A model generated the notes under the pieces. It searched no databases. It worked only from the letters and a program-made list of their open reading frames with translations, and was not told where the DNA came from. Of a stretch of 47,910 nt of DNA, positions 1-46,756 are shown in pieces; within the stretch, counting starts at the first letter, position 1; each line of letters opens with the position of its first letter. Source of the DNA: Candidatus Sericytochromatia bacterium (GTDB lineage: Bacteria; Cyanobacteriota; Sericytochromatia; S15B-MN24; UBA4093); contig JAKFCT010000035.1 in the NCBI GenBank assembly GCA_036676495.1, forward strand, positions 1-47,910. The letters are read 5' to 3'. A program made the translations under genes and the position numbers.

Positions 1-62
1 TGGAGTTCGCCGTCGAGGCGACCAAGCTGCTGGGCCTCAAGCTCGAAGGGAGTGTCGGCTAA
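1..62 (+). CDS. sufB: Fe-S cluster assembly protein SufB, C-terminal fragment cut by the window edge
   Basis: Frame from position 3 reads [19 protein letters not shown], the typical SufB C-terminus. Its TAA overlaps the sufC ATG (TAATG). Confidence 0.9.
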
Positions 63-847
63 TGGCCAAGGGAGACATCATTCTGGAGGTTCGCGACCTG
101 ACGGCCTCGGTCGCGGGCGTCGATATCCTCAAGGGGATTTCCCTGACGGTCCGCGCCGGCGAGATCCACGCCATCATGGGCCCCAACGGTTCCGGCAAGA
201 GCACCTTCTCCAAGGTGCTGGCCGGACACCCCGACTACACCGTCACGGGCGGCACGGTCCGCTTCATGGGCCAGGACCTCTTCGCGCTGGAGCCCGAGGA
301 GCGCGCCAAGGCCGGCATGTTCCTGGCCTTCCAGTACCCCATCGAGATCCCCGGCGTCTCCAACGCCACCTTCCTGCGCCTCGCCTACAACTCGGTCGCC
401 GAGTCGCGCGGCTGGGAGGAGCTGGATCCCCTGGAGTTCGATGACTTCATCCGCGAGAAGCTGCAAGTCGTCGAGATGGACCCCGCCTTCCTGGATCGCT
501 CGGTCAACGAGGGCTTCTCGGGCGGTGAGAAGAAGCGCAACGAGATCCTCCAGATGGCCGTCTTGCAGCCCTTCCTCGGCGTGCTCGACGAGATCGACTC
601 GGGCCTCGACATCGACGCCCTGCGGATCGTTTCCCAGGGCGTGAACGAGATCTCCAACGACTCCAACGCCATGATCATGGTGACCCACTACCAGCGTCTC
701 TTGGACTACATCACCCCGGACTTCGTCCACGTGGTTTCCGACGGCCAGATCATCAAGACCGGCGACAAGGAGCTCGCGCTCGAGCTCGAGCGCCGCGGTT
801 ACGACTGGGTGCGCGAGGAGTTCGAGCGGCGGACCGTGACGGCATAA
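62..847 (+). CDS. sufC: Fe-S cluster assembly ATPase SufC
   Basis: Walker [61 protein letters not shown]. Confidence 0.97.
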
Positions 848-857
848 GGAGGCAGGA

Positions 858-2249
858 ATGACGACCGAAGTCCATACCTCTCGCCTGATGCCCTCGGAGG
901 CGGCCCATGCGACGGCTCCCGCCGAGCACGGCCATGATCCCTTCCTCGAGGCCCTCTTGGCCGCCCGGCAGCCGCTGGCGCAGGCCGCGCCGGCCGGCCT
1001 GGTCGCGCTGCGCCAGGCGGCCGAAGCCCGGCTGGAGCATCTGAGCCTGCCGACCGTGCGCGACGAGGACTGGCGTTTCGCCAACCTCAAGCCCCTGCGC
1101 GCGATTGCCTTCACCCCCGCGCCGGCGCCCGCCGCCCCGAGCCCGGAGGCGATCGCCCCCTTCCTGCTGCCCGAAGCCGACGCCAGCTACCTGGTCTTCC
1201 TCAACGGCCACTTCGCCCCCGAGCTCTCCCAGGTCTCCGGGCTTCCGGCCGGGGTCACCGTGACCTCCCTGGCGGGCGCCCAGGGCCAAGGCGAGCAGGT
1301 GGCGCGTCAACTGGGGCGCCTGGCCGGAACGGATGCCTTCACGACCCTGAACGCGGCCCTGGCCACGGACGGCGCGCTCGTGGTGATCCCGCGCGGAACG
1401 GTCGTCTCAGCTCCGATTCACCTCTTGTTCATCGGAGTGCCTGCTGAGCAGCCGCTCGCCGCGAGCCCCCGCGTGCTGGTCGTCGCCGAGGCCGGCGCCA
1501 CCCTCACCCTGGTCGAGGACTACGTGACCCTCGGGGCCCAAGGGGTCGAGTCCCAGGGGGACGCGCCGGTCTTCACCAACGCGGTGACCGAGCTGGCGAT
1601 CGCCGAGGACGCGGTCGTCAACCATGTCCGCCTCCAGCGGGAGAGCCTCTCGGCCTTCCACATCGGGCGGAGCGTGGCGGAGCTCGGCCATACGGCCACC
1701 TACCACCAGGATGCCGTGACCATGGGCGGCCGCTTCACGCGCTTCGAGCCGGTCGTCCTCCAGAACGCCGAAGGCATGGACGCCTCGCTGAACGGCCTGA
1801 TCGTAATCGGGGACGGCCAGTTCGCCGATACCCACTCGACCCTCGACCACGCCCGTCCCATGGGCAAGAGCCTCCAGGTGCAGAAATGCGTCCTCGACGG
1901 CGATGCCCGCGGAGTCTTCAACGGCAAGATCCTGGTCCGGAAGGGCGCTCAGGCGACCAACTCCTCCCAGCAGAGCCGCAACTTGCTGCTCTCGGAGAAG
2001 GCCAAGATCGACACCAAGCCCCAGCTCGAGATCTTCGCTGACGACGTCCGCTGCGCCCACGGCGCCACGGTCGGTCAGCTCGATCCCGATTCGATCTTCT
2101 ACCTGGTGAGCCGCGGCCTCAGCCAGGCCGAGGCCCATGGCCTCTTGGTCTACGCCTTCGCGGCGGAGGTGATCGACCGGATTCCCCTCGCGTCGCTCCG
2201 CGATGCCCTGCGCACCCGGGTCTCGGCCTCGGTGCCCGGTCTCGAGTAA
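858..2249 (+). CDS. sufD: Fe-S cluster assembly protein SufD
   Basis: LPTVRDEDWRF, VFNGKI, IDTKPQLEIFADDVRCAHGATVGQLD, FYLVSRGL; AAGGAGG RBS. Confidence 0.95.
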   Translation: MTTEVHTSRLMPSEAAHATAPAEHGHDPFLEALLAARQPLAQAAPAGLVALRQAAEARLEHLSLPTVRDEDWRFANLKPLRAIAFTPAPAPAAPSPEAIAPFLLPEADASYLVFLNGHFAPELSQVSGLPAGVTVTSLAGAQGQGEQVARQLGRLAGTDAFTTLNAALATDGALVVIPRGTVVSAPIHLLFIGVPAEQPLAASPRVLVVAEAGATLTLVEDYVTLGAQGVESQGDAPVFTNAVTELAIAEDAVVNHVRLQRESLSAFHIGRSVAELGHTATYHQDAVTMGGRFTRFEPVVLQNAEGMDASLNGLIVIGDGQFADTHSTLDHARPMGKSLQVQKCVLDGDARGVFNGKILVRKGAQATNSSQQSRNLLLSEKAKIDTKPQLEIFADDVRCAHGATVGQLDPDSIFYLVSRGLSQAEAHGLLVYAFAAEVIDRIPLASLRDALRTRVSASVPGLE

Positions 2250-2259
2250 GGAGGGCCGC

Positions 2260-3501
<1,242 letters not shown>

Positions 3502-3556
3502 CGGCCGCGGCACGGCTGACGCCGTGAGCCCCTAGAGTTTGCAAGAGGAAGGTTCG

Positions 3557-4042
3557 ATGAACGCCACGAAGGCGCTATACCAGGAGGTCATCCTGGAGCA
3601 TAACAAGAAGCCCCGCAACTACGGGCTGCTGGAAGGGGCGAATCGCCGCTCGGAGGGAGTCAATCCGCTCTGCGGCGACCATATCCAGCTGACGGTCGAC
3701 GTCCAGGACGACAAGGTCGCCGACATCCGCTTCGAGGGCCATTCTTGCGCCATCTGCAAGGCCTCGGCCTCGATGATGACGACCAACGTCAAGGGCAAGA
3801 CCGTCTCCGAAGCCGAAACCCTGATCCAGGAGTTCCGGGACATGACCACCGGGAAGCTCGATCCCGAGGTCCCGGGCCACCACCTGGGACGCCTCACGGT
3901 CTTCTCGGGCATCTCGGGCCTTCCCTCGCGGGTGAAGTGCGCGGTCCTGCCCTGGCATACCCTGCATGCGGCCTTCGCGAATCGGGACTCCGTGTCTACC
4001 GAGGGATCGGCCGATGATCTGGTTCCCGGAGGAGGTGCGTAA
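3557..4042 (+). CDS. sufU: SUF system NifU-family protein SufU
   Basis: LYQEVILEH, NPLCGD, CAICKASASMM, RVKCAVLPWH. Confidence 0.93.
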   Translation: MNATKALYQEVILEHNKKPRNYGLLEGANRRSEGVNPLCGDHIQLTVDVQDDKVADIRFEGHSCAICKASASMMTTNVKGKTVSEAETLIQEFRDMTTGKLDPEVPGHHLGRLTVFSGISGLPSRVKCAVLPWHTLHAAFANRDSVSTEGSADDLVPGGGA

Positions 4043-4593
4043 TGCCCAAGATCGCTGAAATCGAATACACCCCCAACCCCAACGCCCGGAAGTTCGTGCT
4101 CAAGGAGCCGATCACCAACGGTCCGTCGCGGTCCTACCAGGACGCGTCCTCGGCCCAGGGCGATGGCTTGGCGTCGGCCTTGTTCGCGGTGCCGCACGTG
4201 ATCAGCGTCTACTACGTGGATCGCTACGTCACGGTCACGCAGGACGGCCAGGCGGACTGGCAGGAGCTGCTGCGCAAGGTGGCCGATCCGATCCGCGCGG
4301 CCCAGCCGATCACCATCCAGGCGTCTCCGGACGGGGAGCGCAAGCCCGTTGCGGCGACCCCGGAGGACGAGGTGAAGCTGGCGCAGATCACCGAGCTGCT
4401 GGATACGCGGGTGCGCCCTGCGCTCATGATGGACGGCGGCGGCCTCGAAGTGCTGGAACTCTCCGGCGGCGTGCTCAAGGTCCACTACCAGGGCGCTTGC
4501 GGCACGTGCCCCAGCTCGATGTACGGGACGCTCGCGGCGATCGAGAACCTGGTTCACCTCGTGGATCCGACCTTGCGGGTGGTTGCCGTCTAG
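4042..4593 (+). CDS. Nfu-type Fe-S carrier (Nfu N-terminal domain + NifU C-terminal domain)
   Basis: TPNPNARKFVL N-domain; VRPALMMDGGG and YQGACGTCPSS CxxC. Confidence 0.9.
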   Translation: MPKIAEIEYTPNPNARKFVLKEPITNGPSRSYQDASSAQGDGLASALFAVPHVISVYYVDRYVTVTQDGQADWQELLRKVADPIRAAQPITIQASPDGERKPVAATPEDEVKLAQITELLDTRVRPALMMDGGGLEVLELSGGVLKVHYQGACGTCPSSMYGTLAAIENLVHLVDPTLRVVAV

Positions 4594-4607
4594 ATAGGGG
4601 GGAGGCG

Positions 4608-5051
4608 ATGAAGCTCACGAAGGCGTCGGAATACGGGATCCTGACCCTGCTTTATCTGGCCAAGCAGCCGGAAGGACAGCTCAGTGACACGGCGCGCATC
4701 GCCGAGGTCGAGCGGATTCCGTTATCCTTTTTGATCAAGCTGGTGCCGTCCCTGGTCAAGGCGGGGCTCATCCGCTCGCACCGGGGCGCCAACGGAGGCC
4801 TGGAGCTGGGACGTCCCGCCGAGAGCGTGACCCTGCGCCATGTCATCGAGGCCACGGAAGGGGAGATTGCCGTCAACGACTGCACCACCTCGGCACCCTA
4901 CGATTGCTTCCGCCTGGGTTGCGCGGTTCACGTCGCGCTCAAGAACGCCCAGGACCAGTTCCTGAAGGCTCTGGACGAATGCACGCTGGCGAGCCTCGCG
5001 CAGCAGGAGCAGGCCCCACCGGTTCGCTTCGAGGTCATGCCGGTCCGCTAA
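4608..5051 (+). CDS. Rrf2-family (IscR-like) transcriptional regulator
   Basis: MKLTKASEYG, LVKAGLIRSHRGANGG, C-x7-C-x4-C-x2-H ligand-like motif; GGAGG RBS. Confidence 0.88.
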   Translation: MKLTKASEYGILTLLYLAKQPEGQLSDTARIAEVERIPLSFLIKLVPSLVKAGLIRSHRGANGGLELGRPAESVTLRHVIEATEGEIAVNDCTTSAPYDCFRLGCAVHVALKNAQDQFLKALDECTLASLAQQEQAPPVRFEVMPVR

Positions 5052-5078
5052 TCGCTCGTTTGAATGGAGGGGGAAATC

Positions 5079-5438
5079 ATGGCCACGGAAACGAATACCC
5101 AGGCAGCGCCCAAGCTGATCTCGGTGACCCCGAAGGCGGTGGGTCACGTCAGAACCTTGCTGGAGCGCCAGGAAAAGCCCGACGGTTACCTGCGCATCGC
5201 GGCCGTCGGCGGAGGGTGCTCGGGGCTCAGCTACAAGCTCAGCGTCGAGGACGAGCCCGGCCCTTCGGATTACATCTTCGAGGAAAACGGCCTCAAGGTG
5301 CTGCTCGACATGAAGAGCTCGCTGGTCTTGGCCGGCATGGAGCTCGACTACAACGACGACCTCATGAACGCCGGGTTCTCCTTCAAGAACCCCAACGCGA
5401 CGCATTCCTGCGGCTGCGGAACGAGCTTCGGGGTCTAG
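5079..5438 (+). CDS. A-type Fe-S carrier (IscA/SufA/HesB family)
   Basis: GGGCSGLSY and FKNPNATHSCGCGTSF. Confidence 0.95.
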   Translation: MATETNTQAAPKLISVTPKAVGHVRTLLERQEKPDGYLRIAAVGGGCSGLSYKLSVEDEPGPSDYIFEENGLKVLLDMKSSLVLAGMELDYNDDLMNAGFSFKNPNATHSCGCGTSFGV

Positions 5439-9041: not shown

Positions 9042-9134
9042 CCTCGCGACGGCGCGCGGCGCCTCAGGCACCGCGCGGCTCGGACCCCGACTCCAGCCTT
9101 CGCGGTACAATGGAGGCTTCGGAGGACCCGACGC

Positions 9135-10082
9135 GTGCGCATCAGCTACCATCCCGATTACACGATTCCCTTGCCCGAGGGCCATCCCTTCCCCATGGAG
9201 AAGTACCGGGCCCTGTACCGGGTCTTGAAGGCCCAGGGGCTGCTGGCGGATGCCGATATCGTGGAGCCTGAGGAGGCCGACTGGGCGGATCTCGCCTTGG
9301 TGCATACGCCGGAGTACCTGACGATGCTGCGCGAAGGCGGCATGGATCGCGCCACCTCCCGAAAGCTGGGGTTTCCCTGGTCGGATGCGGTTCTGAGGCG
9401 GGCGCGCCTCGCAGTTCAGGGGACGATCAACGCGGCCATGATGGCCTTGCAGGACGGGCACGCCGCCAATCTCGCCGGAGGCACGCACCATGCCTTCCCC
9501 GATCGCGGGGAAGGGTACTGCCTCTTACACGACGTGGCGATCGCCATCCGGGTGCTCCAGCGCCGCCGCTGGATTCGCACGGCCCTCACCGTCGACCTCG
9601 ACGTCCACCAGGGCAACGGGACCGCCGCCATCTTCGCCGAGGACCCTTCGGTCTATACGTTCTCGATGCATGGCGCCAAGAACTACCCCTTTCGCAAGGA
9701 GCGCTCCAGCCTGGACGTCGAACTGACCGATGGCTGCGGGGACGCGGAGTACCTGGGCTTGCTGGTAGAGCACCTGCCGCGAGCGATTGCCGAGAGCGGT
9801 GCCGACCTGGCGTTTTACCTGGCGGGAGTGGACCCGGCGGCAGGCGATCGCCTGGGCCGCCTCAATCTTTCCGAAGCCGCCCTCTTCGAGCGGGACCGCA
9901 TGGTGCTTTCGGCGCTCGACTCCGCCGGCGTGCCCGTGGTGCTCGTGCTCGCGGGAGGTTACGCGGCAAGTGCCGAGCGTACGGCAGAACTCCATGCGAT
10001 AGCGCACCAGGCCGCCCGGGCCGTCTTCGGACCGGACACGATAGAGAGACGGGTCGACGCCTCCTTGCCCTCGCAGGCCTGA
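9135..10082 (+). CDS. Zn-dependent histone deacetylase-family protein
   Basis: HPFPMEKY, AGGTHHA, DLDVHQGNGT, GVDP..GDRLG, LAGGY. Confidence 0.93.
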   Translation: MRISYHPDYTIPLPEGHPFPMEKYRALYRVLKAQGLLADADIVEPEEADWADLALVHTPEYLTMLREGGMDRATSRKLGFPWSDAVLRRARLAVQGTINAAMMALQDGHAANLAGGTHHAFPDRGEGYCLLHDVAIAIRVLQRRRWIRTALTVDLDVHQGNGTAAIFAEDPSVYTFSMHGAKNYPFRKERSSLDVELTDGCGDAEYLGLLVEHLPRAIAESGADLAFYLAGVDPAAGDRLGRLNLSEAALFERDRMVLSALDSAGVPVVLVLAGGYAASAERTAELHAIAHQAARAVFGPDTIERRVDASLPSQA

Positions 10083-10088
10083 ACGCGA

Positions 10089-10835
10089 TTACCTCCCGGT
10101 TGCGGCGAGCCGTTCGAGGGTTTCTCCGATGGTGCCATCGAGGCGAAGGTCCGCCACGGCGTCGAAGGCCGTGGACTCCCGGTTGAGGATGACGAGCTTG
10201 GCCCCGTGGGACTTGGCGACCTGTGGAAACCAGTTGGCCGGCGAAACCTGAAGTGACGATCCCAGGACGATGAACAGCTCCGCGCGCTCGCTGGCGTCTT
10301 GGGCCTTGCGGAGCGCTTCCTCGGGCAGGGCTTCGCCGAAGAGCACGACTCCGGGACGCAGCCTGTCCCCGCAGCGCTCGCAATGGGTTCCCTCATCGGT
10401 GAGGAAGCGCTCGGAGTCCGCCTCGGCCCCACAGCGCTGGCAGCGGATGGTTCGCAGGCTGCCATGCAGCTCGATGACCTCGGGGCTGCCGGCGCGGGCA
10501 TGCAGCCCGTCCACGTTCTGGGTGATCAGGGCCTGCACCCGGCCCTCGCGCTGCCACTCGGCAATCCGCCGGTGCCCCGCATGCGGTTCCACCCCCTGGA
10601 GCATGCGGATGCGCCAGCGGTAGAACTCCACGAACTCCGGAAAGTCATGTCGCAGGGCCGAGACCGAGGCCAGCTCCTCGAAGCGCCGGTTCTGCTTCCA
10701 GAGGCCGCCCGCGGAGCGGAAGTCGGGTAAGCCGGACTCCGTGCTCATCCCCGCTCCCGTGAAAACGGTGGTATAGCGTGATTCCTGGAGCCAACGCCTC
10801 AGCGTCGCTAGCGGGGTTGCCGGGGGGTGGGGCAT
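10089..10835 (-). CDS. cobB: NAD-dependent protein deacylase (sirtuin, CobB-like)
   Basis: TGAGMSTESGLPDFRS, ITQNVDGLH, ELHGS, two CxxC, LRPGVVLFGE, GSSLQVSPA. Confidence 0.92.
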   Translation of the reverse strand: MPHPPATPLATLRRWLQESRYTTVFTGAGMSTESGLPDFRSAGGLWKQNRRFEELASVSALRHDFPEFVEFYRWRIRMLQGVEPHAGHRRIAEWQREGRVQALITQNVDGLHARAGSPEVIELHGSLRTIRCQRCGAEADSERFLTDEGTHCERCGDRLRPGVVLFGEALPEEALRKAQDASERAELFIVLGSSLQVSPANWFPQVAKSHGAKLVILNRESTAFDAVADLRLDGTIGETLERLAATGR

Positions 10836-10856
10836 GCGTCCCTCCAGATCACGTCG

Positions 10857-13626: not shown

Positions 13627-14598
13627 ATGGCCCTTCGAACCCTTGGACGTACCGAGCTTCGCGTTTCTCCGCTCTGTCTCGGGGGCAACGTCTTCGGCTG
13701 GACCGCCGACGAGGCGGCCTCCTTCGCCGTCCTGGACGCGTACGTGGAAGGCGGAGGCAACTTCATCGACACGGCGGAGAGCTATTCCCGCTGGGTTCCC
13801 GGCCACCAGGGGGGAGAGTCGGAGGCGATCCTCGGGCGCTGGCTGCGATCGCGCCAGCACCGGGACGCGGTCGTGATTGCCACCAAGGTCGGCCTTCCCA
13901 TGGGCGATGCGCCCGAGCAGAAAGGGCTCTCCCGCCGGCGGATCCTGGACGCCGTGGAGGGCTCCCTGCGCCGCTTGCAGACGGACGTGATCGACCTCTA
14001 CCAGGCCCACGCCGACGATCCCGAGACGCCCCTCGAGGAGACCTTGGCCACCTTCGACGAGCTGATCGCGGCGGGAAAGGTCCGTCACATCGGGGCTTCC
14101 AACTACACGGCCCCCCGCTTGAAGCAGGCCCTGGAGGCGGCGCGTCACGCGGGGATTCGTCCCTTCGAAACCTTGCAGCCCGAGTACAACCTCCTGGACC
14201 GCGACGACTTCGAGGGGGAGGTGCAGGCGTTCTGCCTGGAGCACGAACTGGGAGTGATCACCTACTTCTCGCTGGCGAGTGGCTTCCTGACCGGCAAGTA
14301 CCGCAAGGGAGAGCCTCTGCCGACCTCTGGGAGGGCGGCGTCGGTGCAGCGCGCGTACATGAACGAGCGAGGGTTCAGGGTCCTGGACGCACTCGAGCAG
14401 GTGGCGACGCAGCACGGGGCCACTTACGCTCAGGTGGCGCTGGCCTGGGTCATGGCCCAGCCGGGGGTGACGTCGGCGATCGCGAGCGCGACGTCGCCCG
14501 AGCAGACGCGCGACCTGCTCGGCGCGCTGCGGCTGCAACTCGACGAGGCCGCCTTGCGCCGGCTCTCCGAGGCGGGGCTATCCCCCGCGCGCGGCTAG
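13627..14598 (+). CDS. Aldo/keto reductase
   Basis: LCLGGNVFGWT, GNFIDTAESY, IATKVG, SLRRLQTDVIDLYQAH, IGASNY, LQPEYNL. Confidence 0.95.
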   Translation: MALRTLGRTELRVSPLCLGGNVFGWTADEAASFAVLDAYVEGGGNFIDTAESYSRWVPGHQGGESEAILGRWLRSRQHRDAVVIATKVGLPMGDAPEQKGLSRRRILDAVEGSLRRLQTDVIDLYQAHADDPETPLEETLATFDELIAAGKVRHIGASNYTAPRLKQALEAARHAGIRPFETLQPEYNLLDRDDFEGEVQAFCLEHELGVITYFSLASGFLTGKYRKGEPLPTSGRAASVQRAYMNERGFRVLDALEQVATQHGATYAQVALAWVMAQPGVTSAIASATSPEQTRDLLGALRLQLDEAALRRLSEAGLSPARG

Positions 14599-14632
14599 AC
14601 AACGTTTCCAAGAAATGGAAGGACCTCCGCGC

Positions 14633-15517
14633 GTGACCCCGACCCTGTCCGATTACCGATCCCTCATCGCGCTGGACGAGCCCTTCGTGGCGCCGCCTCC
14701 GCTCTCCGCCGAGGAGGCGCCCCGCGTCACGCGCGAGGTGCTCGACCTGCTGCTTCAGGGAGAGCGCGCCCCATGGCTCGTCAGGCTGCTGAAGCCGCTC
14801 GCCCGGGTCTCGGATCGCGACGCCCTACAGGCCCTGTTGACGGCGCGTCCGGCCCGCCCGTTCCTCTCGGAGGAGCTGCACGGCCTGCTGGATCGTTTGC
14901 TGGCCTTCGAGCGCCTCCAGCGCCCATGCGTCGAGGCGATGGATCTTGCGACCGTCACCTCCCTTTCGCTTTGGCAGGGGGATATCACCACGCTGCGGGT
15001 CGATGCCATCGTGAACGCGGCCAACGACGCGCTCTTGGGTTGCTTCCAACCTTTCCACCGCTGTATCGACAATGCCATTCACGCCGCTGCCGGCCCCCGG
15101 CTCCGGGAGGATTGCGCGCGCCTCATGGAGCTTCAAGGCTTCCGGGAGCCGACCGGCCACGCCAAGATCACCCGCGCCTACCATTTGCCTGCGCGCTACG
15201 TCCTTCACACCGTCGGCCCCATCTACGGGGAAGCGGGAGAGGAGCCGGGAGCGCGGGACCGGGAGGCGCTCGAAGCCAGCTACCATTCGTGCCTGGAGCT
15301 CGCCGCCGCGCTGCCGGAGATCCGCAGCCTGGCCTTCCCGTGCATCTCCACGGGAGTCTTCGGCTTCCCGGCGCGGGCCGCTTCGCGGATCGCCGTGGAC
15401 ACGGTCTCGGCGTGGTGCGCTCAGCATCCGGGACGCTTCGACCGCGTGGTCTTCAACGTCTTTCTCGACTCGGATTTGGCACTCTACCAGGAGCGCCTCG
15501 GCATGGCGACCCGCTGA
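14633..15517 (+). CDS. Zn-binding macrodomain protein-ADP-ribose hydrolase
   Basis: WQGDITTLRVDAIVNAAN, GCFQPFHRCIDNAIH (Cys/His/Cys Zn loop), VLHTVGP, AFPCISTGVFGFP. Confidence 0.92.
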   Translation: MTPTLSDYRSLIALDEPFVAPPPLSAEEAPRVTREVLDLLLQGERAPWLVRLLKPLARVSDRDALQALLTARPARPFLSEELHGLLDRLLAFERLQRPCVEAMDLATVTSLSLWQGDITTLRVDAIVNAANDALLGCFQPFHRCIDNAIHAAAGPRLREDCARLMELQGFREPTGHAKITRAYHLPARYVLHTVGPIYGEAGEEPGARDREALEASYHSCLELAAALPEIRSLAFPCISTGVFGFPARAASRIAVDTVSAWCAQHPGRFDRVVFNVFLDSDLALYQERLGMATR

Positions 15518-40242: not shown

Positions 40243-41028
40243 CTACGCCAACACGCGGGCTTCATTGACCAGGTAGTCGACCAGCTGCTTGGCGAGATCC
40301 GGACCTTCTCCGGTCAGCTTGCGGCCGGCAGCGCGACCTGCGGGCCGCTCGCGGCCCACGACCTGGGTCTTGGACCCGCTCGCGCCCACCTTGGAGGCGT
40401 CGAGGCCGAGATCCGCCAGGGCGACGGTGTCGAGGGGCTTCTTCTTGGCGCCCAGGATGCCCTTCATGGTGGGCAGGCGGGCTTCGCCGAAGTCGTTGGA
40501 GACGGTGATGACGGCGGGGGCTTGGACCGAGACGACCTCGCGGCCGTCGTCGCCCACCCGGCGGGTCAGGAACTTGCCGTCCGACTCCTGCTCGAGGGAG
40601 ACGATGTTGGTCACCTGGGGCAGGCCCAGCAGCTCGGCGAGCATGGGGCCGGTGCCGGCGGCATCGGTGTCCTGCGCCTGGCGGCCCATCATGATGAGAT
40701 CGAAGCCCTTATCCTTGGCGTAAGCGGCGATCGCCTGGGCGGCCGCGCCCGAATCCCCGCCGACCAGCGCCGGATCGTCCAGGTGGACGGCCCGATCCGC
40801 GCCCATCGCGAGCGCCTTCTTGAGCACGTCGGTCACCCGGTCGGGACCCATGCTCAACACCTCGACCTCGCAGTCGATCTTGTCCTTGAGCTGCAAGGCC
40901 GCCTCGAGCGCCGACTCGTCGTAGGCGTTCATGGCGTACTGGAGCCCTTCCTCGACGATGCGGCCGTCACGCAGCTGCACGTTGAGTTCGACGTCGATGA
41001 CTTGCTTCAAACAAACCAGGATTTTCAA
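40243..41028 (-). CDS. etfB: Electron transfer flavoprotein beta subunit
   Basis: TTG-KILVCLKQVID after a GGAGG RBS, MNAYDE, ALAMGADRA, GRQAQD. Confidence 0.95.
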   Translation of the reverse strand: MKILVCLKQVIDVELNVQLRDGRIVEEGLQYAMNAYDESALEAALQLKDKIDCEVEVLSMGPDRVTDVLKKALAMGADRAVHLDDPALVGGDSGAAAQAIAAYAKDKGFDLIMMGRQAQDTDAAGTGPMLAELLGLPQVTNIVSLEQESDGKFLTRRVGDDGREVVSVQAPAVITVSNDFGEARLPTMKGILGAKKKPLDTVALADLGLDASKVGASGSKTQVVGRERPAGRAAGRKLTGEGPDLAKQLVDYLVNEARVLA

Positions 41029-41370
41029 TGGAACCCTCCTCTGGGTTTTTGCCCGGTCCACGATGACCACTTCTTTTGACCACGACCCGATCACGCCGCT
41101 GGGGCCTCGGGGCCTGCGCCGGCGTTTGCCGCCCAAGCGGGCCGAAATGGCGGCAATCCTTCCTTATTAGGCCATTTCCAGCCTGCTTTGGCAAGCCCGG
41201 CGCCGCTCATGCTTTCTATTATACCAAGCATGGTGAGTGAGTGCTCGCTAACCATGGAAAAGATCTCCTCCGCGCGCGGAGGCGCGCGAGGATCGTGCCC
41301 GTGTTTCGCCTCGACAGCCGGCCGTTCGCCGGGTAGAATGAGGAAGCCCCGCCGCCCACGAGGAATGCCC

Positions 41371-41832
41371 ATGCGTTGCCCCTTTTGCCATAGCGCCGAG
41401 AGCCGGGTCCTGGAGTCCCGCCTCCTCGAAGAAGAGACCTGCCTGCGCCGGCGGCGCGAATGCGCCGACTGCACCCGCCGCTTCACCACCTACGAGCGGA
41501 TCGAGACCGTTCCCTTGATGGTCATCAAGCGGGACGGCAGCCGCCAAGGCTTCGATGCCGCCAAGCTCAGCCAGGGCATCATGCGCGCATGCGTCAAGTG
41601 CTCCGTCCCCGCGACCGAGATCGAACGCCTCGTCCTCGACGTCGAAGCCGATCTCAGCAAGCGCTTCGTCCGGGAGGTCCTCTCCACCGAGATCGGAGAG
41701 CTGGTGCTCGAGCGCCTGCGCGGCCTCGACGAGGTCGCCTACGTGCGCTTCGCCTCGGTCTACCGCTCGTTCTCGAGCATCGAAGATTTCATCGCCGAAC
41801 TCTCCAGCCTGCGCGCCGGCGCGCTCTCCTAG
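41371..41832 (+). CDS. nrdR: Transcriptional repressor NrdR
   Basis: MRCPFC, SRVLESR, RRRRECADC..RFTTYE, VIKRDG ATP cone, DEVAYVRFASVYR; alternative start 41365. Confidence 0.96.
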   Translation: MRCPFCHSAESRVLESRLLEEETCLRRRRECADCTRRFTTYERIETVPLMVIKRDGSRQGFDAAKLSQGIMRACVKCSVPATEIERLVLDVEADLSKRFVREVLSTEIGELVLERLRGLDEVAYVRFASVYRSFSSIEDFIAELSSLRAGALS

Positions 41833-41927
41833 AGCGAAAAACGTGGTTACAGGTCAGCTACGCTGCCTTTCACCACAGCCGCAGGCGCTCATCCATCGCG
41901 CTGCCGCCGGGCAGCTTTGAGGACGCC

Positions 41928-43895
41928 ATGCAGACCACTCTCGAGCAGATCAAGAAGCGGGACGGGCGGATCGTCCCCTACGACCCCCAGCGGATCGCCC
42001 AGGCGATCGCCAAGGCCACCGGGGCCGTCCACGGCATCGACCCCGCCCTCTCCGACTCCCTCGCCCAGAGCGTCGCCGCCATGGTCGAGCGCCAGGCGGA
42101 CTCCGGCCTCGCCACCGTCGAGCAGATCCAGGACGCCATCGAGGCCGTCCTGATCGAGGCGGGCCTGCCGCGCGCCGCCAAGGCCTTCATCCTCTACCGC
42201 GCCCGCCGCAGCCGCATCCGCGAGGGCAAGTCCGAGCTGATGCTCGCCGTCAACGACGTCCTCGCCGGCGAGGATCCCGCCCTGCCCCCGGCGTCCCCCG
42301 CGAGCAAGCTCCTGGCCGTGGGCTCTGCCGCCAGCCAGGAATACTACCTCAAGCGCATGCTCCCCGAAGAGGACGCCGTCGCCCACATGCGCGGCGAGCT
42401 CCATGTCGAGTCCCTGGATTCCTACGCCAAGGCCCCTTCCTCCCTGGTCGTCCCCCTGCAATCCCTTTTAGAACACGGCCTGCGCCTGCCCAGCATGACG
42501 CTCGCTCCCTGCCGCGACCCGCATGCGGCCACGCTGGGCTTGACCCTCGCCCTGCAGGCCCTGGCCGGTGAACTCAGCGGCGCGATGGCCCTCGAAAGCT
42601 TCGACACCGTCCTGGGCGACCACCTCATGGACGCGGAGGACGCCGAGGTGCATGCGGCCGTCTCCGCGCTGCTGCAAGCGCTCGCCATGCCGACCTGGCG
42701 CGGGGACGCTCCCTTGCCGGTGACGATCGCCTTCGGGGCCGATCCTGCGCCCGCCGCCCGCCGGGTGGCGCGCGCCCTCCTGGACGTCGCCGCCCAGGGG
42801 GAGCCCCGCTTGGCCCCGACCCTGGTCATGCGCCTGCGCCCCGGCGTCAACCTGGACCCCGGCGATCCCGGCCATGACCTCTTCCAGGCCGCTGTCAGGC
42901 TGGCCGCGCGCCGCCTGACGCCGCTCTTCGCCTTCGGGGACGAGCCGATCCTGGGGGGCGGCATGCGCCTCGCTCCCGATCGCTTCGGAGCCCCCGCCGC
43001 AGGTCGCTCGGTCGTCGCCTCGGTCACGATCAACCTGCCGCGCATCGCCTTCCAGGCCCGCCGGGACCACCAGGCCTTCGACTCCCAGCTCTTGCAGGTC
43101 CTGGATCGGGCGGGCCGCCACCTCGCCTATCGCATGCACGTCCTGGGGCAACTGAAGGGCCGCGACCTTCCGCTCTTGATGCAGCGGGGCCTGCACGCGG
43201 GCTCCGACGATCTCGGCGCGCATGATCCCTTGGGCTTCGCCCTGCGCCACGGCCAGCTCAACATCTCCTTCGTGGGGCTCGCCGAGGCCTTGACCCTCAT
43301 GGAAGGCGCCCATCACGGGGAGGCCGCCTCCTCGCAAGAGCGGGGACTGGCGATCTTGCGCCTCATGCGCGACGCGGTCTCGGCCATGGCCGAGCGGCAT
43401 GACCTCAACATGGTCCTTTCCGCGCAGGCCTCGGATGAGGCGGCCGTTCGCTTCGTGGCCCTGGACCGGCGCGACTTCGGCAGCCAGCCCCATGTGACCG
43501 ATCGTCCCGCCTATACGGCCTCGTACCTGCTGCCATCGGACTTCGCCGCCTCGGTGGAGCGCCGCCTCGCGCGGGAGGCCGGGTACCACAAGTTCTGCGC
43601 CGGGGGCAACGGCGTCCTGCACGGCGGGAGCGGCGACGATCCCGAGGCCCTCGAGGGCTTGATCCGTCGCATGCACACCGAAGGGGCGGGGCTGCTTTGC
43701 TTCGGCGACGCGCTCGATCTCTGTCCGGCCTGCGGTCGGGAGGAGCGCACTCCCTCCGGTGACGCCTGTCCTTGCGGAAGCCGGGACTGGCGCCGCCTCC
43801 GGCGTCCTTCGGTGGAGCTTTCGCTCTGGGAGTCCCTCGGCCCCGAGCGCCAGGCGGAACTCCAGGCCCGCCGATCGCCTTCCGCGAAGGGGTAG
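41928..43895 (+). CDS. ATP-cone-containing NrdD (class III RNR)-like protein, apparently catalytically dead
   Basis: IKKRDG..VEQIQD..AKAFILYR ATP cone; scaffold motifs GVNLDPGDPGHDLF, TINLPRIA, SFVGLAEAL, EAGYHK; C-terminal CPACG..CPCG. No Gly-radical or thiyl motif. Confidence 0.8.
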   Translation: MQTTLEQIKKRDGRIVPYDPQRIAQAIAKATGAVHGIDPALSDSLAQSVAAMVERQADSGLATVEQIQDAIEAVLIEAGLPRAAKAFILYRARRSRIREGKSELMLAVNDVLAGEDPALPPASPASKLLAVGSAASQEYYLKRMLPEEDAVAHMRGELHVESLDSYAKAPSSLVVPLQSLLEHGLRLPSMTLAPCRDPHAATLGLTLALQALAGELSGAMALESFDTVLGDHLMDAEDAEVHAAVSALLQALAMPTWRGDAPLPVTIAFGADPAPAARRVARALLDVAAQGEPRLAPTLVMRLRPGVNLDPGDPGHDLFQAAVRLAARRLTPLFAFGDEPILGGGMRLAPDRFGAPAAGRSVVASVTINLPRIAFQARRDHQAFDSQLLQVLDRAGRHLAYRMHVLGQLKGRDLPLLMQRGLHAGSDDLGAHDPLGFALRHGQLNISFVGLAEALTLMEGAHHGEAASSQERGLAILRLMRDAVSAMAERHDLNMVLSAQASDEAAVRFVALDRRDFGSQPHVTDRPAYTASYLLPSDFAASVERRLAREAGYHKFCAGGNGVLHGGSGDDPEALEGLIRRMHTEGAGLLCFGDALDLCPACGREERTPSGDACPCGSRDWRRLRRPSVELSLWESLGPERQAELQARRSPSAKG

Positions 43896-44226
43896 CCCTC
43901 GGCCTCCGCTGGCCACTTCCGCCAAGACTTGACCGGATACTTTGTGCGGCTTCCCGGGACCGCCTTCCTGCTGCCGGGAGGCGAGCCGTCGCGCGCGCGT
44001 CGCCGCATGTCCCCGGCAGGTTAGGGCGTTTCGGACAAGAGCCTTCGTCAACGCCTCCAGCGCGGGCGGCCTCGCGGTCGCTGAGAATCGCCACGGCGGC
44101 AAGGCGAAGTCCTGCCTGCACTGTCCAACGCCGAATGCCGGCAAGCGTCGATGGCGCGGGCCCGTCGCCGTCAGGCGCGCATGAGACAGCTTGGCCGGCC
44201 GCCTTCCTGGCAAGCGAGGAGGGTCT

Positions 44227-45246
44227 ATGCGAGCGAGCGTCCGGTGGAACCTTTCCGAGGCGGACTGGGAGGCTTTCCTGGGGGCATGTCCCCGGGCCAC
44301 CTTCTACCACAGCCCTGCCTGGTACCGGGCCAACTCGGAGACGTTCGGCCTGGAGCTGGCTCCGGCCGTGATTCGCCTGTCGAATGGCGAGGAGGCCCTC
44401 CTGCCGATGGCGATTCGCACCAAGTACCGGGGGTTGCTCCGCGAGGCCGTCGCCGGCGTGGGGGGAGGCTACGGGGGGCTGGTGACGCCCCGGCCGTGGC
44501 CGCTGGACTGGGTGCAGCTGGCGTTTCGGGAGGTGGCGACGCGCTTTCCCGAGCTCTTCGTCTACTCCAACCCGTTCGAGCTTTACTTCAACGCTCCGTT
44601 GCCGGGATTCGGCTTCCGCATGACGGAGACGTCCACCCAGGCGCTGGCCCTGGCGGATCTCGAGCTGCTGCGGGAGCGCTACTCGCGCAGCCGTCGGAAG
44701 CAGTGCCGCAAGGCCATGGCCGAGGGCTACCAGATCCAGACGCTTCCAGCCCAGGGGGAGCTGGAGCGGTTCTACCGGGTCTACGAGGAAGCGGTGACGG
44801 GGTGGGTCAGTCAGCGCTGGGTGAGGCCCAAGCCCTTCTTCGAGCGCCTTTTGGCTTACGGGGGCGATCGCCTGCGCGTCTGCTTCGTCCTCCACGACGG
44901 GACGCCGATCGGCGCGCGCCTGATCGCCAGCTATGGCGCGGTGGGGGTCGGGTTGATCTACGCCTTGAAGCGCGGCCATGACCAGGGGGCGGCCTCGAGT
45001 GCGCTCACCGAATCGGCGCTCGCCCTCTGCTACAAGGAGGGGCTGAGGTACTACGACTTCGGCGCCTCGGGAAGCCTGGCGGGGATCCGCTACTTCAAGG
45101 AATCGTTCGGTGCCGTTCCCTTGCTCGGAGTTTTGGCTCAGCGGCAAGGCTTCGCGGGGAGGGTGCTCGGCCATGCGCGCGCGGCGGCGCTCTGGGGGGC
45201 GCGCTTGGTTCACCAGGCCGACGGCGCCGGCAAGCCCACGGGATGA
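44227..45246 (+). CDS. FemAB-like GNAT-fold protein
   Basis: ATFYHSPAW, GGYGG, YYDFGASGSLAGIRYFKESFGA; GAGGAGG RBS. Confidence 0.82.
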   Translation: MRASVRWNLSEADWEAFLGACPRATFYHSPAWYRANSETFGLELAPAVIRLSNGEEALLPMAIRTKYRGLLREAVAGVGGGYGGLVTPRPWPLDWVQLAFREVATRFPELFVYSNPFELYFNAPLPGFGFRMTETSTQALALADLELLRERYSRSRRKQCRKAMAEGYQIQTLPAQGELERFYRVYEEAVTGWVSQRWVRPKPFFERLLAYGGDRLRVCFVLHDGTPIGARLIASYGAVGVGLIYALKRGHDQGAASSALTESALALCYKEGLRYYDFGASGSLAGIRYFKESFGAVPLLGVLAQRQGFAGRVLGHARAAALWGARLVHQADGAGKPTG

Positions 45247-45338
45247 TCGCGCGCTCCGCGCGAAACACCTTGGCGGGGATGACGAGGCCTCCGCCTCTCG
45301 GCCTGTCCACCATGGGGGAGGGATCGGAAGGAGGGGGC

Positions 45339-46349
45339 ATGGACGTATTCTCGGAGCTCTCGCGCTCGGAGTGGCTCGACCGGCTTGCCGCATGTCCGGA
45401 CGCGACCTACTTCCACACCCCGAGCTGGCTCGAGGCGGTGGTGGTCGGCTTCGGCGGCCGCGTGCAGGGCCTGGAGTTCCGCTTCCCGGACGGCAACTGG
45501 GCCCTTTTTCCCATGACGGTCAAGCCCTATGCCAAGGGCATGTTCTGCCACGGGTACTCGGGCGAGTCCGGGGTGTACGGAGGGCCGCTCTCCCCGCGGC
45601 CGCTCGCGCCCGATCAGGAGGCGGCGCTTTACGCCTGGCTCGCGGTTCAGTACCCGAACCTCCAGGTTTTCGGCAACCCCTTTTCCGAGGGCTCCCTGCC
45701 CGAGGGGGCGCCTCCTCGAGGGGTGAACTGGGAGCATGCGGAGCATGAGACCCATGTGCTGGAGCTGGGGGCTCCCGAGGTCATGCGCGCCGGCTTCAGT
45801 CGCGGCTGCCGGGCCCGGGGCAACAAGGCGCGACGGGCGGGCATCACGACCGAGGTCTACTCCGGGCGGGATGCCGCCGCCGTCTTCTACGCCCTCTACC
45901 TCGATTCGGTCCGCCGCTGGGGCGAGAAGGTCACCTGGATTCGCCCGCTGCGCTTCTTCGAGGCGGTGCTCGCGGCGGGCGAGCCGCATGCCGCCCTGCA
46001 CCTGGCGCGTTTCGAGGGACGCCCCGCCGCGGCGATGATCGTCTGCGCCTGGGGCGCGCGCGCCCACTACCTGGCCGGAGCTGCGGATTCGAGCCTGATG
46101 GAGCATTGCCCGAGCAACCTCCTGATGGAGGAAGTGGCCCTGGTCTGGCATGCGCGAGGCAAGCGCGTCATGGATCTCGGATCCAGCAACGGCCTGGAAG
46201 GCGTCATGCGTTTCAAGGAGTCTTTCGGCGCCAAACCCCTTGCCTACGCCGAGATCCGCCGCCAGGGAGCGCTCGGCAGGCTCTACTTCACCCTCCACCG
46301 CCCCTACCGGCGCCTGAAGCAATCCGTCAGCGAGGTCTTGAATCTGTGA
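45339..46349 (+). CDS. FemAB-like GNAT-fold protein (paralog)
   Basis: ATYFHTPSW, GVYGG, PSNLLM, DLGSSNGLEGVMRFKESFGA; AAGGAGG RBS. Confidence 0.85.
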   Translation: MDVFSELSRSEWLDRLAACPDATYFHTPSWLEAVVVGFGGRVQGLEFRFPDGNWALFPMTVKPYAKGMFCHGYSGESGVYGGPLSPRPLAPDQEAALYAWLAVQYPNLQVFGNPFSEGSLPEGAPPRGVNWEHAEHETHVLELGAPEVMRAGFSRGCRARGNKARRAGITTEVYSGRDAAAVFYALYLDSVRRWGEKVTWIRPLRFFEAVLAAGEPHAALHLARFEGRPAAAMIVCAWGARAHYLAGAADSSLMEHCPSNLLMEEVALVWHARGKRVMDLGSSNGLEGVMRFKESFGAKPLAYAEIRRQGALGRLYFTLHRPYRRLKQSVSEVLNL

Positions 46350-46423
46350 CCATGATCGTGGATCCGCGCAGCCGGAGATCGCTATCATGAGGCAGCTTGT
46401 CAACAACCTGTCGAGGAGGATTC

Positions 46424-46756
46424 GTGGCGCGCCACTCCAAAGCCGCTCAGGCGCTCGAAAGTCGCCTGCTCCGCTGGGTGATCCTGGGACTGATCGTCTC
46501 CATGGGGATCAACCTCAGCCGGCTCATGGTTCAAGAGTGGCGCCTGTTGCGGCAAGGACAGATCCTGCGCCAAGAGCAGGATAGCGTCGAAGCGCGCGCC
46601 CAGGAAGTCCTCAACGAGATTCGGCTCTCCCAGGCCGCCCCCGGCATCCAGCGCCTGGCTCGGGAGCGCCTGGGCTTCGGCATGCCCGGAGAGATCCCCG
46701 TGCACTTCACCGGAAAGATTCCCCCCGCCGAGGCGATGCCGATCCCGATCCCTTGA
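46424..46756 (+). CDS. Septum formation initiator (FtsB/DivIC family)
   Basis: One TM helix, coiled coil, IQRLARERLGFGMPGEIPV; GAGGAGG RBS. Confidence 0.8.
   Translation: MARHSKAAQALESRLLRWVILGLIVSMGINLSRLMVQEWRLLRQGQILRQEQDSVEARAQEVLNEIRLSQAAPGIQRLARERLGFGMPGEIPVHFTGKIPPAEAMPIPIP

Follow-up and report, generated by a model that had tools for sequence, protein, structure and literature searches.

The window analyzed here, a 47,910-nt stretch of contig JAKFCT010000035.1 from Candidatus Sericytochromatia bacterium, carries directly behind the repressor gene nrdR a gene for a homolog of NrdD, the class III ribonucleotide reductase (RNR), that has lost the residues with which the enzyme forms and uses its radicals. 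Comparison with orthologs indicates that this nrdD-like gene is nevertheless held by purifying selection and is not a decaying pseudogene. On balance, and with moderate confidence, we predict that its product is a maintained, noncatalytic ATP/dATP-binding protein derived from NrdD. An earlier reading of the DNA letters (the sequence-only reading) had described the gene as a frame of 655 codons about 95 nt after nrdR, and both its coordinates and its frame are as given there (Table 1).

Loss of the catalytic residues

The product is recognizable as an NrdD in its domains and in its fold. Pfam places an ATP-cone (PF03477) at residues 7–95 (2e-20; 73.5 bits against a gathering threshold of 25.8) and the reductase domain NRDD (PF13597) at residues 122–626 (1.9e-69), and the nearest solved structures by HMMER are the Prevotella copri enzyme PcNrdD (8p23; 9e-56), followed by the NrdDs of S. 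thermophilus and phage T4. An AlphaFold2 model made from an 86-sequence alignment (predicted local distance difference test score, 92.7; predicted template modeling score, 0.88) was compared with known structures in Foldseek. The template modeling score is 0.79, normalized by query, for PcNrdD (8p23/8p2s), and 0.67–0.71 by query and 0.79–0.82 by target for T4 NrdD. On every NCBIfam model for NrdD equivalogs the protein scores far below the cut-off: PRK07111 gives the highest score (367.8 vs. 764), TIGR02487 reaches 219.4 vs. 326.35, and the others score lower.

To locate the functional residues, we mapped those named for PcNrdD in PMC11226230 through the HMMER alignment to 8p23, in which the chain numbering runs four ahead of that of the paper. 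Like PcNrdD and T4 NrdD (1h78), the window protein has the domain order ATP-cone, linker, 10-stranded barrel, zinc ribbon, and C-terminal loop, and it shares with them the ATP-cone binding residues, the zinc cysteines, and the asparagine of the NLPR motif; its position behind nrdR is that of many active relatives. It differs in lacking Gly711, Tyr712, Cys416, Cys171, the HxHD motif, the NxN flap, Asn298, and Gln309, in having no adjacent nrdG, in its NCBIfam scores below cut-off, and in a cone that is more conserved than the core. All of the motif changes listed by the sequence-only reading are present, with the nuance that the glutamate of TPAE has changed conservatively, to D503.

The protein has seven cysteines in total and none between residues 196 and 556, so that there is no alternative register for the cysteine of the finger loop. 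A glycine loop or a thiyl cysteine in a register that had been missed, one of the observations that would have overturned the earlier reading, was looked for by a residue scan, which ruled it out. The claim that the window holds no gene for the activase NrdG also stands: among 45 candidate open reading frames (ORFs) of the 47.9-kb window we found no Pfam match to Radical_SAM, to Fer4_12, or to any other RNR, and the lowest tblastn E-value, with the NrdG of locus L009 as query, was 0.62. We conclude from the sequence that neither a glycyl nor a thiyl radical can be formed or used by the window protein, which is therefore not a glycyl-radical RNR.

Conservation among close orthologs

Of the 8000 candidates scored in a word-indexed search of 5.8 billion proteins, 238 were matches, and a full HMMER scan of 1.84 billion cluster representatives yielded 4323. 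Eight close orthologs (P0003–P0010) are 66%–76% identical to the window protein and have open frames. Seven of them measure 647–657 aa, and the remaining one, P0010 (582 aa), ends before the zinc ribbon; one cluster carries the source label "compost metagenome." The finger-loop cysteine and the equivalent of Cys171 are absent from all of them. Valine occupies the glycine position in 8/8 full-length close orthologs, which also have the four zinc cysteines, and these ligands and C557 are the only cysteines conserved. For NrdR, SufD, and the NrdD-like protein, the nearest relatives that have names belong to metagenome-assembled genomes (MAGs) labeled Stenomitos, Pantanalinema, or Sericytochromatia, at 45%–70% identity, or Tanganyikabacteria.

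The alignment of the nine sequences has 267 invariant columns out of 655 (41%), and only 13 query columns are gapped apart from the missing C terminus of P0010. Branch lengths in the close-ortholog clade sum to about 2.1 changes per site, a depth at which equal rates would leave about 12% of the columns invariant. We simulated neutral drift by mutating the window gene at random at the base composition of the window, with 300 runs per identity target. At 76% protein identity, 3.3% of the copies were free of stops (mean of 3.4 stops per copy); at 66% identity, 1.0% were.

The rate of divergence was also set against that of SufD (window 858–2246). Its orthologs are 78%, 77%, and 68% identical to the window copy, compared with 76%, 75%, and 69% for the NrdD-like proteins P0003, P0004, and P0010 that are presumed to lie on the same contigs. 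The dead NrdD diverges at about the rate of this working, moderately conserved housekeeping protein. For other dead lineages the ratio of nonsynonymous to synonymous substitution rates (dN/dS) by the Nei-Gojobori method (NG86) is 0.26–0.40 among Sericytochromatia-labeled loci and 0.19 in Bacillota, compared with 0.04–0.12 for active pairs; dS in these estimates is at or near saturation and is missing for five of the 15 locus pairs, and the close orthologs, compared as proteins, stand outside this set. A ratio near 1 for the window copy had been named beforehand as a sign of decay. The values for these other dead lineages are below 1, although constraint is relaxed relative to the active genes.

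Because the frames are open, indels are few, stop-free copies are rare in the simulation, the rate resembles that of SufD, and constraint is uneven along the protein (see below), we judge the gene to be maintained. The sequence-only view of a gene that is dead yet kept is borne out by these results and by the eight orthologs that share its substitutions.

Constraint on the ATP-cone

For counts across the family, we scored 184 sequences, comprising 104 search matches and the ORFs of 80 loci, which were not de-duplicated against each other. The 177 that span both cysteine columns include 92 with both cysteines and the glycine (active), 75 without at least one cysteine (degenerate), and 10 that have both cysteines and a truncated or ambiguous glycine position.

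The window protein keeps all five nucleotide-binding residues of the cone: K10, R11, Y90, R94, and R98, which correspond to PcNrdD Lys7, Arg8, Tyr83, Arg87, and Arg91. The same five residues read KRYRR in 74 of the 75 degenerate sequences, the remaining one being truncated at its N terminus, and in 78 of the 92 active sequences. Among the close orthologs, 70% of the columns of the cone are invariant.

We measured regional constraint as mean pairwise identity, comparing the close orthologs with two sets of active NrdDs of similar depth. Identity in the cone is 0.88 among the close orthologs and 0.65–0.73 in the active sets. The order is reversed elsewhere: 0.74 vs. 0.87–0.90 in the linker and flap; 0.63 vs. 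0.83–0.84 at residues 136–235, which include the HxHD motif and the first-strand cysteine; 0.68 vs. 0.80–0.81 at residues 236–345, with the specificity helices and loop 2; and 0.68 vs. 0.76 over the core (136–590). The conservation profile is thus inverted relative to active NrdDs, with the active-site regions least constrained and the ATP-cone most constrained. The HHD of the HxHD motif is present in 90 of the 92 active sequences and in 13 of the 75 degenerate ones, and in an independent dead lineage the C-terminal glycine domain is gone entirely and the cone retained.

The ATP-cone is described in the available text of PMC11226230 as essentially restricted to RNRs and NrdR. A role in nucleotide sensing, which the sequence-only reading had suggested for this gene, probably holds at the level of the family, in which the cone is the best-conserved part and its five binding residues are kept. 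The more specific roles that it put forward, co-regulator of NrdR or inhibitor of another RNR, are hypothetical.

Recurrent inactivation in the NrdD family

The next relatives of the window protein are ∼40%–47% identical to it, and among the matches listed no fully canonical NrdD exceeds 41% identity. One sister group (P0011–P0027 together with L001:4604-7110), whose members are labeled Stenomitos, Pantanalinema, Sericytochromatia, or "Cyanobacteria bacterium" where named, keeps RRxxGYL and the finger-loop cysteine (SGCAR) and is without the Cys171 equivalent and the NxN flap. This group could be partway through inactivation, or its members could be enzymes whose chemistry has changed. In a second sister group, in which the named members are Sericytochromatia or "Cyanobacteria bacterium," GHEAR replaces the finger cysteine and the glycine is also lost in some. 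At locus L001, labeled Stenomitos sp., there is no nrdG within about 5–7 kb. The contig is 68% G+C, which seems high for that cyanobacterial genus, so that the MAG may be wrongly labeled.

We placed 76 rows on a tree by an IQ-TREE quick search (LG+C20+F+G4; approximate likelihood-ratio, SH-aLRT, support only; root set by distant NrdDs), in which several rows are long-branched or of odd composition. The close orthologs group together (support, 100) within a 28-row clade with two Cyanobacteriota-labeled groups (support, 100), and this in turn is nested in a 32-row clade in which all rows are degenerate (support, 98). Other degenerate forms are found among active Bacillota-type NrdDs. They comprise a 13-row clade (support, 95) that includes a long-branched Bacillota group and a Dethiobacter/Desulfovibrio-labeled group; a trio around L008; and P0068. 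With each row scored as alive or dead (26 alive, 47 dead, and three unscored), the tree implies at least four changes of state. Inactivation is, on this tree, recurrent in the NrdD family. The sequence-only reading had treated a single gene, and the gene is as it was described; it is one of many degenerate forms, however, and not an isolated case.

The Dethiobacter/Desulfovibrio-labeled dead lineage (L012, L023, L025, and L032; P0081 and P0133) keeps the ATP-cone and barrel and has no zinc ribbon or glycyl-radical domain; its flanks contain neither nrdR nor nrdG. The independent, long-branched dead lineage of Bacillota MAGs still lies behind nrdR (L029:9553-12585, L034:3069-6176, L038:9543-13189, and L033:1187-3438). 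A look-up in the Protein Atlas returned generic NrdD clusters only.

History of the nrdR linkage

Genomic context was examined in 80 of 581 matching loci from a collection of species-representative genomes, none of the 80 being above 45% identity. At 30 of these 80 loci the next gene upstream, in the same orientation, is nrdR. By Pfam annotation of the flanking ORFs, the order at active nrdR-linked loci is nrdR, nrdD, nrdG, often followed by pgeF. By tblastn, nrdG adjoins nrdD in 18 of the 19 active nrdR-linked loci that could be assessed (all but L035; L003, L007, and L030 are cut off too soon to be judged). Fifteen loci are degenerate (L001, L004, L005, L008, L012, L014, L019, L023, L025, L029, L032, L033, L034, L038, and L046), and the flanks of none of them gave an nrdG by tblastn, although L012 and L014 have <1 kb downstream.

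At L029 and L034 the neighbors are as in active loci, in the order nrdR, nrdD-like, pgeF, with an HlyD-like gene also downstream, and only the nrdG before pgeF is missing; L038 has HlyD-like and YggS-like genes downstream from its nrdD-like gene. Since active nrdR-nrdD-nrdG operons share the adjacency to nrdR, it is inherited from an ancestral operon of that kind and is not a new association of the dead copy. The earlier emphasis on nrdR and the nrdD-like gene as a module is weakened by this comparison, because the synteny extends to active operons and several dead lineages have no adjacent nrdR.

Tandem NrdR boxes (four mismatches or fewer, 31–32 nt spacing) lie just upstream of nrdR in seven active loci (L006, L016, L017, L024, L026, L030, and L031) and in none of the seven degenerate loci that have nrdR. 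This difference is weak, because ten other active loci are also without tandem boxes.

Locus layout and other features of the window

The window has a G+C content of 67%. The product of nrdR scores 182.6 bits against TIGR00244 (cut-off, 124.65). GAGGA-like Shine-Dalgarno motifs precede the ATGs of both nrdR and the nrdD-like gene. The candidate promoter in Table 1 is the one promoter-like site in positions 40900–44400, compared with 0.1 expected from shuffled sequence. That interval has only two terminator-like sites, both on the – strand, and none on the + strand between the two genes. Because the spacer is free of a + strand terminator-like site, nrdR and the nrdD-like gene are probably co-transcribed.

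Upstream of nrdR on the opposite strand are etfB, etfA, and a gene for a CCG-domain Fe-S oxidoreductase. Downstream, the nrdD-like gene and divIC are separated by two FemAB-like genes that are absent from L001 and L014, where divIC follows directly; a tRNA-Leu gene also lies downstream.

Table 1. Features of the nrdR locus and positions of kept and lost motifs in the NrdD-like protein
Feature	Residues	Position in window	Strand	Details
Sigma-70-like promoter candidate, TCGACA-17-TAGAAT		41311..41339	+	32 nt upstream of nrdR; consensus match only
nrdR		41371..41832	+	153 aa; Zn_ribbon_NrdR residues 1-42, ATP-cone residues 50-135; repressor of RNR genes
Intergenic spacer		41833..41927	+	95 nt, between nrdR and nrdD-like gene
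nrdD-like gene		41928..43895	+	ATG start, uninterrupted 655-codon frame plus stop; homolog of class III RNR, catalytically dead by its residues
ATP-cone	7-95	41946..42212	+	Pfam PF03477
NxN flap (ENAN) position	114-127	42267..42308	+	Replaced by GEDPALPPASPASK, no Asn
HxHD (Pc 157-160) and first-strand Cys	159-162; 172	42402..42443	+	HIHD to HVES; second mechanistic Cys (Pc C171/T4 C79) to S172 (PSS for NC/TC)
QND..GGQ motif	213-220		+	AGELSGAM
Specificity site and loop 2	251; 261			Pc Asn298 to A251; Pc Gln309 to A261
Finger-loop remnant	341-347	42948..42968	+	ILGGGMR for YMGCR; thiyl-radical Pc Cys416/T4 C290 to G344
TPAE motif	500-503		+	QASD; substrate-bridging Pc Glu581 to D503, conservative
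Zinc ribbon (CPACG...CPCG)	599, 602, 614, 616	43722..43775	+	Kept; C599, C602, C614, C616
Glycyl-radical loop remnant	625-631	43800..43820	+	RRPSVEL for RRITGYL; Pc Gly711 (T4 G580) to V629, Tyr712 to E630
FemAB-like (Acetyltransf_6) tandem genes		44191-45246, 45243-46349	+	Inserted between nrdD-like gene and divIC
divIC/ftsB-like gene		46397..46756	+	Order nrdR, nrdD-like, divIC common to L001 and L014

A complete-looking suf Fe-S cluster occupies positions 1–5438 on the + strand (sufC, sufD, sufS, and genes for NifU-like, Nfu, and A-type carrier proteins). Orthologs of its SufD apparently share contigs of 61550, 51318, and 573184 nt with close NrdD-like orthologs, which suggests synteny over a long range. 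Close to a macro-domain gene (14471–15517), a gene of the histone-deacetylase family converges with one of the Sir2 family (9042–10856), and together these may be a gene cluster for deacylating proteins or handling ADP-ribose. ARAGORN reports a tRNA-Ala (CGC) at 10512–10606 (+) that is unusually long (95 nt) and lies within the Sir2-family ORF of the opposite strand (10089–10856); it is probably false.

Discussion

The explanation that we favor is that the nrdD-like gene derives from the reductase gene of an ancestral nrdR-nrdD-nrdG operon, the activase gene having gone from the locus and the radical chemistry of the reductase having been lost. The protein keeps the NrdD fold and the zinc ribbon under purifying selection, which now weighs most heavily on the ATP-cone. 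The cone would bind ATP or dATP and shift the conformation or the oligomeric state of the dead barrel scaffold, and the protein would in this manner report or buffer the dATP/ATP ratio, probably within the control of deoxynucleoside triphosphate (dNTP) supply. It is conceivable, but in our view rather unlikely, that on repeated occasions in bacteria the class III reductase, once its activase and radical chemistry were lost, became a stand-alone ATP-cone sensor that works with NrdR as a second subunit reading dATP/ATP, for example through co-oligomerization of the cones.

Several observations weigh against the favored explanation. NrdR is 96%, 96%, and 93% identical where the NrdD-like protein presumed to lie on the same contig is 75%, 77%, and 71% identical, and active loci with a 96%–99% identical NrdR have an 89%–93% identical NrdD. 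Constraint on the NrdD-like protein is clearly relaxed, roughly two- to threefold, though it is not absent. The G+C content of the gene is 0.72 (measured over positions 42001–44000), compared with ∼0.67 for the window average, and is high at first codon positions (0.78) and near the low end among window genes at third positions (0.81). This pattern fits drift toward Gly, Ala, Arg, and Pro, relaxed constraint, and weak codon bias or expression. The old active site may still bind some ligand, because the acidic residue at the Glu581 position, N369 of the NLPR motif, H159, and R258 (Pc Arg305) are all kept; the Glu581 position is Asp or Glu in 9/9 close orthologs and Glu in 92/92 active sequences. 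With regard to NrdR, the window has no match to the NrdR-box consensus ACACWATATWTWGTGT with three mismatches or fewer, and ∼10 kb upstream of eight of the 15 degenerate loci (L004, L005, L019, L008, L012, L023, L025, and L032) contain no nrdR, and therefore a role tied to NrdR cannot be general.

That last count also weighs against a narrower version of our explanation, in which the cone of the dead NrdD associates with NrdR itself and tunes repression of the real RNR genes. Such a partnership would suit two genes that lie 95 nt from each other in one orientation and have a spacer free of + strand terminator-like sites. NrdR and the NrdD-like protein also appear to share contigs (10040, 34689, and 573184 nt; pairing presumed) in three further close relatives, the order nrdR, nrdD-like, divIC is kept in L001 and L014, and NrdR function depends on ATP-cone-mediated oligomers set by ATP/dATP (PMC9110341, available text). 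An adjacency inherited from active operons, however, carries no specific information about the dead copy, and we hold this version to be unlikely. A prediction of the complex between the two proteins gave it no support (score, 0.00; mark, 0.32) and is counted neither way. Less likely again is a neofunctionalized ligand-binding protein or enzyme, in which the remodeled pocket of the barrel would hold another small molecule or carry out nonradical chemistry with the cone as its regulator. Besides the kept acidic residue, H159, and R258, N369 persists in all 75 degenerate sequences, and residues 346–500 are well conserved (50%–55% invariant columns). These same segments are conserved in active NrdDs, though, and their conservation may be structural. 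The pocket motifs (HxHD, flap, and loop 2) vary among close orthologs, with HES, HEG, HDG, HER, and HEA all found, which speaks against a newly fixed active site.

We give only a slim chance to a regulator or decoy of another RNR, or of envelope or division functions, that would act through contacts independent of nucleotide sensing. Genes with which it might be connected are at hand: divIC lies downstream in the window, in L001, and in L014, the window has the FemAB-like insertions, and dead loci of Bacillota adjoin pgeF, HlyD-like, and YggS-like genes. Active copies have the same neighborhood, however, and the strongest constraint falls on the nucleotide-binding part of the cone. Decay is largely refuted as an explanation. 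A pseudogene or a relic left open by chance would account for the rates that are relaxed relative to NrdR and active NrdD, for the raised total and first-position G+C, and for the missing C-terminal part of P0010, but it is hard to reconcile with eight open orthologs, 13 gapped columns in 655, and 41% invariant columns, with a chance of 1%–3% per lineage of remaining stop-free in the simulation, with a divergence equal to that of SufD, and with a strongly uneven constraint centered on the cone; we consider it very improbable. The probability that the protein is still an RNR, using another register or another radical source, is close to nil. NrdD active sites can look atypical, as in the crystal structure of T. 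maritima NrdD, which is described in the available text of PMC4493059 as having no pre-positioned radical cysteine; here, though, residues 196–556 have no cysteine, valine has replaced the glycine in every full-length ortholog, the HxHD motif and NxN flap are lost, and the 47.9-kb window has no nrdG.

If the product is a noncatalytic nucleotide-binding protein, its nearest relative in working principle would be, by analogy, NrdR. Both have an ATP-cone, and the ATP/dATP state of NrdR is thought to drive a change of oligomeric state without catalysis (PMC9110341, in the part available). They differ in that NrdR is a protein of 153 aa with a DNA-binding zinc ribbon, whereas the window protein has a dead barrel of 550 residues and no recognized DNA-binding domain. 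As a dead RNR, its nearest precedent is found in the betaherpesviruses, in which homologs of the R1 subunit (UL45 of human cytomegalovirus, M45 of murine cytomegalovirus, and R1 of human herpesvirus 6B) are reported in the accessible portions of PMC5469499 and PMC11772975 to be catalytically inactive and kept for a noncatalytic role. In both cases an RNR catalytic subunit has lost activity and is retained. The viral proteins, however, are class Ia, belong to animal viruses, and interfere with host signaling, whereas the present protein is class III and bacterial, and its most constrained part is the ATP-cone.

In the searchable literature, from which subscription-only sources are excluded, we found no description of a conserved inactive NrdD beyond a table note. 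That note, in Table 1 of PMC12816986 (seen in part), lists, for aerobic or micro-oxic bacteria with other RNRs, an "NrdD-like paralog (no NrdG)." It shares with the present gene an NrdD-like product without an activase and differs in that the entry comes without an analysis of residues, selection, or function; the two are likened by description only. A term search within the available text of the RNR phylogeny and database papers PMC9531940, PMC3019208, and PMC2795772 gave no mention of an inactive NrdD. RNRdb admits only sequences with all key motifs (PMC2795772, same text), and for this reason such degenerate forms may have gone unremarked.

A conserved dead NrdD adds to a well-known enzyme family a pseudoenzyme form that is new and has arisen recurrently. 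Where databases name these proteins, the name is "anaerobic ribonucleoside-triphosphate reductase," and when metabolism is reconstructed from the MAGs in which they occur, some labeled Cyanobacteriota or Sericytochromatia, anaerobic dNTP synthesis could for that reason be wrongly ascribed to these organisms. With its conserved ATP-cone on a scaffold that is dead, the protein is a natural case for studying the function of the cone when there is no catalysis to regulate. The stages of loss are graded, from forms that keep the glycine and finger cysteine, through loss of the finger cysteine, to loss of the glycine, with loss of the whole C-terminal domain in another lineage; together with the parallel origins, they make this family a good system for the evolution of enzymes into pseudoenzymes. 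If the reading as a stand-alone sensor is true, it would add a layer of control over dNTP pools in Cyanobacteriota-related and some Bacillota lineages, and the at least four changes of state would then represent convergent exaptation and not parallel decay.

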